DNA of 64,000 nucleotides from Cyanidioschyzon merolae (Eukaryota). The stretch is taken from NCBI GenBank assembly GCA_000091205.1, contig AP006492.2, one strand, 5' to 3'. Positions 34,718 through 36,976 of the stretch are shown piece by piece. A program made the translations under genes and the position numbers. The first letter of the stretch is position 1. Every line of letters begins with the position of its first letter. A model generated the notes under the pieces. It saw only the letters and a list, made by a program, of their open reading frames with translations, searched no databases and was not told the DNA's origin.

Positions 34718-36976
34718 ATGGTGGTGAAAACCTTCCTTCTTAAACATATCAAGGATCCGTGCAAGGAAAAGTTGCGAGACGCTATCAAAAAACGTGTCGA
34801 CTCGTACTCCAAGAGTATTGTCAAGGCGTCGTCAGTACTGATGCATTTGGTGAGGGAGATGTATCGCGACGTGACGCACATGGAAACAGTCGAGATTCCT
34901 GACGATTTTTTCGACAAGACGTTTATTCGTCACCTGATGCTTGGCACAGCGGAAGCGCTGAAGGAAAATATGCTAGTGCACGCCCTCCACGAAAACTTGG
35001 TGGAATTCCGCTTCGAAGGTAATCGATACAGGGGTGCCTCGGATATTTAGGCATACGGAGCGAAAAAGTACATCACGAGTCTGAAGAACCATTTGACAGT
35101 GAACCTCGAACGTTTTATGATACGCGCGGTGGGTACACTCTACCCGGGCATCTTTCGCAACGGAAAATGGGCGATTATCAATGGCATCATGAAAGATCGA
35201 AAGTATGAAGTTGAGATCGAGTTTGTCGATAAGAAGGCGTCACGCAGGAGCGCAAATGAAGCTTCTGTAATCCGTGCGGCTATCCAAGAGTATCGTGCAG
35301 TCCTGGGGCTGGCGAATTTGGCAGAAAATTTATCAGAGTTGAAAAAAGATAAGGAAAGATACTACCGCCTCATCCTGTGATATTTCGTGTTTCTGGACCG
35401 AGAGCTCGAACGCGAAGCGGAGATGAAGCTGAGTGAAGAGACAAATCAAGAGTGGGAGAGACGGAAGGCTTTCCTAATGGGTAAGCGCTTCAACGGCGTT
35501 CCAATGTGCAATATCAAGTCACATTTCGTGACTATCGATTCAGGCGTCCTTTACGGCATCATGAGGGAGATCTGTCCGGAGTTCGATGTGAGCAGGGAGG
35601 ACTTCATCGGTGAAAACCGGGAGACGTACTGGAAGAGTATCTTCGATTTCAAACGTCTCAAAGTCAGCAAACAAAAGGTATTTACTGGGTTGATCGAAAC
35701 CGATGGAGTAGCCACGTGTGTACTCTATCGGCGGTTGAAGAAAGATCGTCCAGTTCCGCCCTCGGCCGCGCCCGTCACGAGGGATGCAGAAAACAAAGAG
35801 GAGGATTCTGTGATGCAGGAGGTGGAGGATACCGAGTTTGTCGTTGACGTGACGAAGGATGAAGAAAACAAAGAGGAGCATCCTGCTACGCAGGAGGTGG
35901 AGGATAACGACCTTGTCGTTGACGTGGCGAAGGATGAAGATGAGAAGAAGGCGGATCCTTCGGCGCAGGAGGTGGAGAATAACGACTTTATGGTTGACGC
36001 GGCGAAGCATGAAGAAAACAAGGAGGCGGGTCCTGCGACGCAGGAGGTGCAGGAGAACGACTTGGTCGTTGGCCTTGACCCTGGGAGCACGACCATCCTA
36101 GCCATTGCTGCACCCAAGCGTGCGGAAGACGGTACTGACGGCAAATTACGTCAGAAAGACATGCGTGTGTTCAAGCTCTCGAATGCGAGATATTACCGGG
36201 AATCGGGAACCATGAATGCGAGGAAGAAAATTGAGACTTGGAATTCAGGAATAAAAGAGCACCTGGAAGCTATGAGCGAGGTGACGAGCCGAGGAGCGGA
36301 CTTTCGAGCTTTTCGGAAATTCATGGAAGTTCGTGTTGCTCATTGGGAGGCGCTGTTGGAGGAGTATACAAAGCCCGTGTGAGCTCGTCTGTGTATGAAT
36401 CTGTATTGTGGAAAGCAGCGTGCATTCGCGAACTTTTTCCATGAGTTGAGCGCCTCGAAAGAGGACAAGACTCAAAGGCTCGTCGTAGCGCACAGAGCGG
36501 TGCACTGGATGACCCAAAAAGGGACTCCGCCAGCTCCAACGACGAGAACGTACAAGGAGTGTGCACGGCGTTTTGTTACAATACCTGCAGACGAGTTCCG
36601 AACATCTTATACACACCATGAGCTGGGTTGTAAACTTCAGAGGGTCGAGATGAAAATGTGCCAGCGGAGCCCTAAGGACATAGCAAAGTACGGACCGCTG
36701 ACGGAGGAGCTAATGGAAAGGAGGGCGAAAGTTCGTGGACTCTTTGCATTAGTAAGTGCAACCAGTGATGGCAAGAAACGTATGGAGTTTGTGAACCGCG
36801 ACTTTAATGCTGCCATCAATATAACGAGATATGCGGTGCTGGAGACGAGACCTCCAGAGCAGACAAGAGAGCTCTTTGTTGAACAGTCACTAAAAGTTGA
36901 ACTATATGAGAAGAAATGGGAAGCAGTAGTGGATGGCCGTTCGAAAAAGACGGGGAGGCGTCTGCATGTTAGTTAA
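34718..36976 (+). pseudogene. Fanzor (TnpB-like RNA-guided nuclease homolog) ORF in copy B. In-frame stops: TAG at 35048, TGA at 35378, TGA at 36380.
   Basis: The four ORF-track segments 34718..35050, 35093..35380, 35387..36382 and 36395..36976 are all in frame 2 and separated only by stop codons. The first stop corresponds to TAC (Tyr) in copy C. Confidence 0.75.
35785..36065 (+). repeat. 69-bp in-frame tandem repeat, 4 units. It encodes acidic 23-aa units ([25 protein letters not shown]) just upstream of RuvC-I in copy B.
   Basis: Repeated protein units are visible in the 35387..36382 translation. Copy C has one unit and copy D about two. Confidence 0.75.

Follow-up and report, generated by a model that had tools for sequence, protein, structure and literature searches.

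Anatomy of copy B

We analyzed a 64,000-nucleotide (nt) stretch of Cyanidioschyzon merolae DNA (contig AP006492.2), referred to below as the window, and in particular the second of the four copies, A to D, of a mobile element that it contains. The element encodes a protein of the Fanzor1 type. Fanzor1, the eukaryotic relative of TnpB of bacteria, cleaves DNA with a split RuvC active site under the direction of a guide RNA, which the element carries at its 3′ end. In copy B, the Fanzor1 gene keeps one reading frame from end to end and is interrupted by in-frame stop codons. A first-pass annotation of the window had taken B to be either a recently inactivated pseudogene or a gene that would need stop codon readthrough.

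The consensus DNA and protein sequences of the C. merolae element CMe-1A were taken from the supplement of Bao and Jurka (2013, Mobile DNA 4:12; PMC3627910) and mapped onto the window by blastn. The features of B are given below, with codons numbered as in the consensus; an L number denotes a related locus, and P0001 is the protein of locus L001.

34338 to 37046, plus strand: copy B, a Fanzor1 CMe-1 unit, corresponding to CMe-1A consensus positions 687 to 3169 (blastn)
34562 to 36976, plus strand: conceptual open reading frame (ORF) of B in the consensus register, ∼805 codons including a 75-codon repeat expansion; read here as a pseudogene
34613 to 34624, plus strand: KKRK basic patch (from the translation), also in the consensus
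34685 to 34687, plus strand: in-frame TGA at codon 42 (CAA in the consensus), just after the KKRK patch; also in L009
35048 to 35050, plus strand: in-frame TAG at codon 163 (TAC in the consensus, C, and D); L009 and L042 have TAG too
35378 to 35380, plus strand: in-frame TGA at codon 273 (CGC in the consensus and C, TGT in D); common to L009 and L042
35773 to 36072, plus strand: four tandem 75-nt units encoding acidic repeats of 25 amino acids (aa), directly upstream of RuvC-I
35998 to 37050, plus strand: tract common to B and C (C 46709 to 47761, minus strand), 97% identical versus ∼75% upstream
36071 to 36085, plus strand: RuvC-I motif GLDPG, catalytic Asp kept; D484 is invariant across 68 relatives
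36378 to 36824, plus strand: 447-nt block identical to C 46935 to 47381, containing the shared TGA
36380 to 36382, plus strand: in-frame TGA at codon 532 (TGG in the consensus, A, and D); found also in C, at 47377 to 47379
36482 to 36502, plus strand: VVAHRAV, replacing the family's VVAYGAG; the invariant Gly (G623 in P0001 numbering) is Arg in B and C
36587 to 36607, plus strand: RuvC-II motif ADEFRTS, catalytic Glu kept (translation and alignment of relatives)
36794 to 36823, plus strand: RuvC-III motif NRDFNAAINI, catalytic Asp kept (translation and alignment of relatives)
36977 to 37046, plus strand: 3′ noncoding end of the element; the CGCCACTACTGTACACC motif, conserved in the family, is interrupted by deletions in B and C

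Aligned codon by codon to the consensus ORF (positions 906 to 3110; 2,205 positions), B had 282 substitutions (87.2% identity) and no frameshift. Its sole indel in the ORF was an in-frame gain of 225 nts, equal to three extra 75-nt units; thus, the earlier statement that B is without indels held for frameshifts but not for this repeat expansion. When frame 2 was read from 34718 to 36976, the TAG at 35048, the TGAs at 35378 and 36380, and the terminal TAA at 36974 were all reproduced. The three annotated in-frame stops are therefore real, but there is a fourth: when read in register with the consensus, the ORF begins at an ATG at 34562, 156 nts upstream of the Met used earlier (34718), and the TGA at 34685 to 34687 lies upstream of that assumed start. 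By comparison with the consensus, the corrected gene model has its true start at 34562 and a fourth in-frame stop. The interruptions are point nonsense changes and not introns, as had been proposed, the first annotated site being TAC in both C and D.

The terminal TAA at 36974 is itself altered. It corresponds to a TGG codon of the consensus (codon 730), five codons before the family stop, and C has the same change. In addition to the replacement of G623 by Arg, B is changed at several other near-invariant positions. The KKRK patch is likely a nuclear localization signal.

Copies A to D are members of the Fanzor1 family CMe-1

One Fanzor1 family, CMe-1, with the element CMe-1A, has been described in C. 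merolae; it has ∼150 copies, each ∼80% identical to a 3,169-bp consensus, that encode a 734-aa protein in a single exon and lack terminal inverted repeats (PMC3627910). The 5′ 635 bp of the consensus are another repeat, TE-N2_CMe, whose class is unknown, and some CMe-1A copies are still intact in the 10D genome (PMC3627910). Bao and Jurka also argued that the divergence within CMe-1 arose largely under protein selection (PMC3627910).

Copies A to D are members of this published family, CMe-1/CMe-1A. B was 85 to 87% identical to the consensus DNA by blastn, in agreement with the published level of divergence, and it has the same host organism, ORF layout, single exon, and 3′ end, and the same lack of terminal inverted repeats. 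It also differs from the consensus. The 5′ 640 bp (the TE-N2_CMe part) are missing from B, which adjoins a retrotransposon without long terminal repeats (a non-LTR retrotransposon) instead, and B has the three extra 75-nt units and the four internal stops of a dead copy. That the element is mobile and multicopy is evident from the four copies in 64 kb and from 344 related stretches in metagenome contigs. The 10D copies compared here were the four in the window, out of the family total of ∼150.

A database search returned 35 close relatives, all metagenomic, and an exhaustive profile search returned 2,636. A profile built from 68 relatives matched only three entries in the PDB, all of them Fanzor1: 9CF0 from Parasitella parasitica (E = 3.5e-22), 8GKH from Spizellomyces punctatus (E = 1.4e-15), and 9CER from Guillardia theta (E = 3.1e-10). 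PDB searches with a single sequence and with a shallow profile gave no match, and the similarity of CMe-1 to the solved nucleases is distant, detected only with the 68-sequence profile. The motifs RuvC-I (GxDPG), RuvC-II (DEF/YxTS), and RuvC-III (RDxNAAxN) align, an N-terminal basic patch is found in both, and the catalytic triad (D484, E656, and D725 in P0001 numbering) is invariant across the 68 relatives. Unlike the solved nucleases, CMe-1 is mostly without the zinc-ribbon cysteines between RuvC-II and RuvC-III; CxxC pairs were not evident in its sequence. The Pfam family Cas12f1-like_TNB was matched by 18 of the 68 relatives (best E = 2.1e-08), with P0001 and B below threshold, and a Pfam scan of P0001 and of the repaired B protein gave no significant family. 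The AlphaFold2 model of P0001, made with the 35 close relatives, had a mean predicted local distance difference test score (pLDDT) of 42.7, too low for a fold search.

Compared with TnpB of the IS200/IS605 elements (the OMEGA systems), CMe-1 has a nuclease of the same RuvC-type superfamily, and the gene likewise lies at the 3′ side of a mobile element, beside a conserved noncoding end that is probably structured. It differs in being a eukaryotic nuclear element with a much longer protein (734 aa), and a TnpA-like transposase was not adjacent to CMe-1 within the window. Unlike those of the solved Fanzor1 nucleases, the guide RNA and nuclease activity of CMe-1 are predictions. In the literature, we found no biochemical data for any C. 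merolae Fanzor, and of the papers listed by our search only Bao and Jurka (2013) treat a Fanzor of this organism.

The stop codon shared by B and C lies in a nearly identical tract

The other three copies in the window are as follows.

583 to 1911, minus strand: copy A, a 3′ fragment only (consensus 2040 to 3145), with one frameshift and two internal stops
46713 to 49830, minus strand: copy C, full-length CMe-1A (consensus 24 to 3169), with 5 indels and 6 internal stops
58409 to 60992, minus strand: copy D (consensus 649 to 3162), with 9 small indels, a 73-nt repeat insertion, and 4 stops

As the annotation had it, frameshifts are present in A, C, and D but absent from B. A four-way alignment also reproduced the observation that the last internal TGA of B is shared by C (KPM*ARLCM), whereas A and D have TGG there (PRWARLRM).

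Copies B and C are inverted relative to each other and lie 9.7 kb apart. Over most of their length they are ∼75% identical, but at 35998 to 37050 the identity switches abruptly to 97%. Within this 1.05-kb tract, 60 bases are common to B and C and unlike those of the consensus, A, and D; these shared derived bases include the G-to-A change that makes the TGA at codon 532 and the change that makes the early TAA. The two copies differ at 29 substituted sites in the tract, none of which is in the 447-nt core (36378 to 36824); the flanks around the core are ∼95% identical. The tract stops where homology does, at the 3′ end of the element. Because the TGA lies within the identical 447-nt core, in a tract where B and C have 60 derived bases in common, it is, on this evidence, shared by descent; its presence in both copies is uninformative about function and is not a sign of it.

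We considered whether the same TGA could have arisen twice, independently, at a mutational hot spot. Codon 532 is also a stop (TAG) in the unrelated metagenomic copies L056, L063/L075, and L069, and codons 692, 163, 485, and 730 have repeatedly been turned into stops. But the TGA is one of the 60 shared derived bases, it sits within a 447-nt stretch free of differences, and upstream of the tract B and C are only ∼75% identical. Independent origin is therefore extremely improbable.

Because the core is 100% identical but its flanks only ∼95%, at least two exchanges are needed, an older one that covered the whole 3′ third and a recent one that covered the core. We infer that the last 1.05 kb of B was exchanged with C by ectopic recombination or gene conversion, that the TGA at 36380 would have traveled with the tract, and that the 447-nt block would be the most recent conversion core; the mechanism is deduced from the pattern of identity, as any direction of the exchange would be. 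The abrupt switch from ∼75% to 97 to 100% identity between inverted copies, with inactivating mutations carried along, resembles known cases of ectopic gene conversion and concerted evolution, although with one genome conversion is inseparable from chimeras derived by crossing over.

Metagenomic contigs gave a similar picture. L009 and L042 are 99% identical to B from ∼34400 (L042, from ∼34700) to 36000 and have B's stops at codons 163 and 273; L009 also has the stop at codon 42, a codon that L042 does not cover. At codon 532 both read TGG, and the 3′ third of each is unrelated; in L009 the 3′ flank is different, too. In L005, conversely, the flank of B is retained as far as the citrate synthase gene and the 3′ third is of the B/C type with the TGA, but the 5′ part is different. 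Since metagenomic contigs may be chimeric at repeats, we take the mosaics of L005, L009, and L042 as suggestive and as supporting evidence only.

Mosaics are also seen at the 3′ end of B itself. Contigs ∼99% identical to the window (L002 to L005 and L007) have mixed B-like and C-like states at 36825 to 36991. In those that, like L005, L009, and L042, combine the 5′ or 3′ part of B with different sequence, the tandem repeats are where the change of partner occurs. These mosaics are either real population-level recombination or chimeric assembly.

Stops and frameshifts among the relatives of B

We scored 80 related loci from metagenome contigs (L008 to L087) in the consensus register; after deduplication, 54 were distinct and full length. 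None of the 54 was intact, and so the search for a stop-free master copy among them was unsuccessful. The median relative had 4 stops and 4 frameshifts. The stops were mostly at different codons, that is, independent and unshared, which is the pattern that the first-pass annotation had named as the mark of plain decay. A fully intact copy was absent from the whole set of 80 loci; for 10D, such copies are reported in the 2013 paper.

Two loci, the longest relatives, came close to being intact. L001 (6001 to 8259, encoding P0001) has lost 1 nt at ORF nt 51 and is stopped by a TAA at codon 700, beyond the last catalytic motif; in L008 the frame is never shifted and is interrupted once, by a TAG at codon 229.

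Certain codons were stops in several copies: 692, 163, 485, 730, 149, 524, 203, 626, and 532. Codon 692 (TTG to TAG or TGA) was a stop in 10 of the 54 relatives and codon 163 (TAC to TAG or TAA) in 8. These recurrences could reflect codons one step from a stop, dead subfamilies that still multiply, or spread by gene conversion.

Stops made up 47% of the disabling events in the relatives (stops to frameshifts, ∼0.47:0.53). At that ratio, the probability that all events in a copy are stops is ∼0.05 for four events and ∼0.10 for three (omitting the stop shared with C). Because four copies were inspected, P values of ∼0.05 to 0.1 are not significant, and in its lack of frameshifts B is only a mild outlier.

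Selection and decay

The ratios of nonsynonymous to synonymous substitution rates (dN/dS) relative to the consensus were low: 0.35 for B, 0.43 for C, 0.44 for D, 0.20 for A, and 0.38 for L001. All copies had an excess of third-position changes; in B, the counts at codon positions 1, 2, and 3 were 71, 75, and 136. If all 282 substitutions in B had been neutral, 9.6 stops would be expected, whereas 4 were observed (P[≤4] = 0.028 by simulation); the observed number fits ∼100 to 150 neutral substitutions. Low dN/dS values and fewer stops than neutrality predicts indicate that much of the divergence among copies arose in lineages under protein selection. Because dN/dS is low in every copy, even the heavily frameshifted C and D, it reflects the history of the family and not B's locus.

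The recent branches gave a different result. B had a dN/dS of 0.98 versus L009 (5′ part), 0.74 versus L042, and 0.73 versus C (3′ part). Thus, these branches were near neutral, as in a pseudogene. The proposed dN/dS test has therefore two answers: the value of 0.35 versus the consensus records past selection on the family, and B's own recent branches are at ∼0.7 to 1.0. Three of B's stops are found in environmental copies that are 99% identical to it, and so these stops are older than that ∼1% divergence.

Taken together, these data make it very probable that B is a nonfunctional, neutrally decaying copy of the Fanzor1 gene of the CMe-1/CMe-1A element. On this reading, the family was under purifying selection while its lineages were active, and for this reason copies ∼13% diverged from the consensus still look like genes. 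B has since gained four nonsense mutations, the early terminator, the replacement of the invariant Gly, and the deletions at its 3′ end. The earlier designation of B as a recently inactivated pseudogene stands as to pseudogene; as to recent, it holds only in part, in view of the four stops, the early TAA, G623R, the 3′-motif deletions, the age of the three stops found in environmental copies, and the recent dN/dS of ∼0.7 to 1.0.

The alternative that B was an intact, selected master or domesticated copy until very recently, all its stops being young, we consider unlikely. It would account for the absence of frameshifts from B, against a median of 4 in the relatives, and for a dN/dS of 0.35 versus the consensus with stops below the neutral expectation; moreover, some CMe-1A copies are reported to be still intact (PMC3627910). 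However, a low dN/dS is common to all copies, including the frameshifted C and D (0.43 to 0.44), and the stops-only pattern has a P value of just ∼0.05 to 0.1. The stops at codons 42, 163, and 273 are shared with the ∼1%-diverged L009 and L042, which have since been further damaged, and dN/dS on the L009/L042 branch is 0.74 to 0.98. Finally, the 3′ third of B came from, or was given to, the dead copy C.

Three points weigh against neutral decay. First, B is without a frameshift in 2.2 kb, which is true of only 1 of the 54 relatives; this fits either a fairly late loss of function or luck in escaping indels. Second, the recent-branch dN/dS values come from few changes (4:14, 3:8, and 6.5:16.5 synonymous to nonsynonymous), and so they are compatible with weak constraint. 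Third, the contigs used for the comparison are possibly chimeric where repeats were assembled.

Mutation resembling repeat-induced point mutation (RIP) was also considered as the source of stops without indels and was rejected. The TAG at 35048 is a C-to-G transversion, the TGAs at 34685 and 35378 each require two changes, and the sole simple change, G to A, lies outside a CpA context (all relative to the family consensus).

Readthrough and the genetic code

The window is identified by its protein matches as nuclear DNA of C. merolae 10D, from chromosome 10 according to the CMJ locus tags. Five of its genes match C. merolae 10D proteins exactly (BAM80382, BAM80383, BAM80387, BAM80392, and BAM80393), and the exact matches include eS10, PABP, citrate synthase, and CMJ300C. 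The uninterrupted host ORFs use all three terminators: TGA in eS10, P450, and PGK; TAG in eL32 (28404 to 28961, minus strand) and CMJ300C; and TAA in PABP and citrate synthase. The stops annotated for eS10 (TGA), PABP (TAA), and eL32 (TAG) were all reproduced, and the conclusion that the standard code applies was borne out. A variant nuclear code with TGA or TAG as sense is rejected, since the host ORFs of the window are uninterrupted and use both as terminators.

One relative of a host gene was anomalous. P0242 (393 aa), described as an endonuclease/exonuclease/phosphatase family metal-dependent hydrolase, is a member of the 90%-identity cluster of citrate synthase; it is probably a fused or misclustered metagenome gene call.

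Could B still be expressed at full length by readthrough or recoding, for example, with the UGA at codon 532 read by tRNA-Trp? One frame is kept over 2.4 kb, the D, E, and D residues of the RuvC site are retained, and, as the TGA at 36380 replaces TGG, near-cognate reading there would give the wild-type residue. The other three stops, however, replace Gln, Tyr, and Arg codons, not Trp. Known leaky readthrough contexts of eukaryotes include UGA-C or UGA-CUAG and UAG-CAR-YYA. In B, the stops are followed by AGG (TGA at codon 42), GCA (TAG), TAT (TGA at codon 273), and GCT (TGA at codon 532), so that the next base is a purine in three cases and T in one, and none of the four contexts is known as leaky. 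An Rfam scan of the whole window found no family at threshold, selenocysteine insertion sequence (SECIS) elements included. The use of TGA, TAG, and TAA as terminators by the host genes of the window, the recent-branch dN/dS of ∼0.7 to 1.0, the loss of the invariant Gly, and the occurrence of stops in the relatives at scattered sites together with frameshifts all argue against readthrough. Because a full-length product would need four successive readthrough events at stops of two kinds, the readthrough alternative raised by the first-pass annotation can be given almost no weight.

The 3′ end of the element

The 70 nts after the stop are conserved across 30 copies and have the form GGGCG-loop-CGCC ACTACTGTACACC. 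A nearly invariant motif, CGCCACTACTGTACACC, lies between two small hairpins in these last 70 nts. One small hairpin has a covarying pair (GC in 14 copies, CG in 11), but overall RNAalifold support was weak (−5.3 kcal/mol), and there was no Rfam match. The terminal hairpin exists in two alternative versions, and the first bases past the element are often TTYG. B and C have deletions within the conserved ACTACTGTA motif, which are a further sign of decay.

By analogy with characterized Fanzor1 systems, the 3′ end is likely the scaffold of the guide RNA (omega RNA) or the right end of the element. The CMe-1 protein would bind RNA made from this end, and the nuclease would cut DNA matching the sequence just outside it. 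The CGCCACTACTGTACACC region together with TTYG is a candidate for a guide RNA scaffold, right end, or target motif.

The 75-nt repeat and flanking elements

The 75-nt unit encodes a 25-aa acidic repeat immediately before the RuvC-I strand. There is one unit in the consensus and in C, about two in D, and four in B, A, and L001; the units are at 1530 to 1841 in A, 59376 to 59535 in D, and ∼7146 to 7450 in L001. The 73 extra repeat nts in D shift the frame. The tandem repeat is also the point at which sequence relationships between copies switch.

The following elements adjoin the Fanzor units or are related to their flanks.

29969 to 34337, minus strand: decayed non-LTR retrotransposon, head-to-head with the 5′ end of B and not part of the Fanzor unit
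8720 to 9285 and 24704 to 25286: solo TE-N2_CMe copies, from the consensus mapping

The retrotransposon frames include the reverse transcriptase motifs FTDFQKAFDTV and GLRQGDPASPLLFNIF and a C-terminal Cys/His knuckle; one ORF of 369 aa had no match in Pfam. A second, partial copy (1912 to 5223; 3.3 kb, 96.6% identical) adjoins fragment A in the other relative orientation. Because the orientation of retrotransposon and Fanzor differs at A and B, the region has been rearranged. The possibility that the 5′ region of B is split by a 3.1-kb insertion was rejected, as 29969 to 34337 is one contiguous retrotransposon adjoining B. The idea that the retrotransposon has no endonuclease of its own and borrows Fanzor is disfavored: a remnant similar to the N-terminus of an apurinic/apyrimidinic endonuclease (APE)-type enzyme (...FASWNISGI...) is visible, and the orientation of the association is not constant.

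TE-N2_CMe (8720 to 9285, 24704 to 25286, and 49281 to 49830) shares ∼200 nts with the 3′ part of the retrotransposon (compare 29969 to 30030 and 62210 to 62270), and the two have a common terminal 15-mer, GTAAACGTTTTGTCA, antisense to the Fanzor gene. TE-N2_CMe looks like a short, nonautonomous derivative of the retrotransposon, similar to a short interspersed nuclear element (SINE); no poly(A) tail was seen on it.

In loci L008 to L087 and in the window (34338 and 60992), the conserved unit begins ∼220 to 265 nts upstream of the ATG (consensus ∼641 to 687). Upstream of this point the loci have unrelated DNA, TE-N2_CMe, or pieces of the retrotransposon, the two repeats occurring in both orientations. 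Thus, ∼2.5 kb and not 3.17 kb may be the size of the mobile Fanzor unit, which may favor landing beside these repeats. The abutting of TE-N2_CMe or the non-LTR retrotransposon at many loci could reflect a sequence-specific insertion target.

Implications

The finding adds little new biology to what was published in 2013, when the family, its Fanzor1 identity, its age, and its mix of intact and decayed copies were described (PMC3627910); B is one of the decayed copies. It does remove a false lead, in that copy B is not a case of recoding or readthrough, and it provides a clean example of a nonsense mutation shared by sequence exchange, which is a trap when shared stops are read as recoding.

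Since C. merolae is an alga amenable to genetics in which homologous recombination is efficient, the CMe-1 family could serve for the study of interactions among Fanzor copies, a use that goes beyond the present finding. The 3′ end of the element, which would encode the guide RNA and adjoin the target of the nuclease, is precisely where the B/C tract stops; this tract has undergone two or more renewals, and the metagenomic contigs are mosaic in the same place. It is therefore conceivable, if in our judgment quite improbable, that recombination initiated at this end, and perhaps set off by the nuclease, homogenizes the copies of the family. If active Fanzor copies cut at the ends of elements and other copies serve as templates for mending the breaks, concerted evolution would be driven by the nuclease itself, which would spread good and dead alleles alike.

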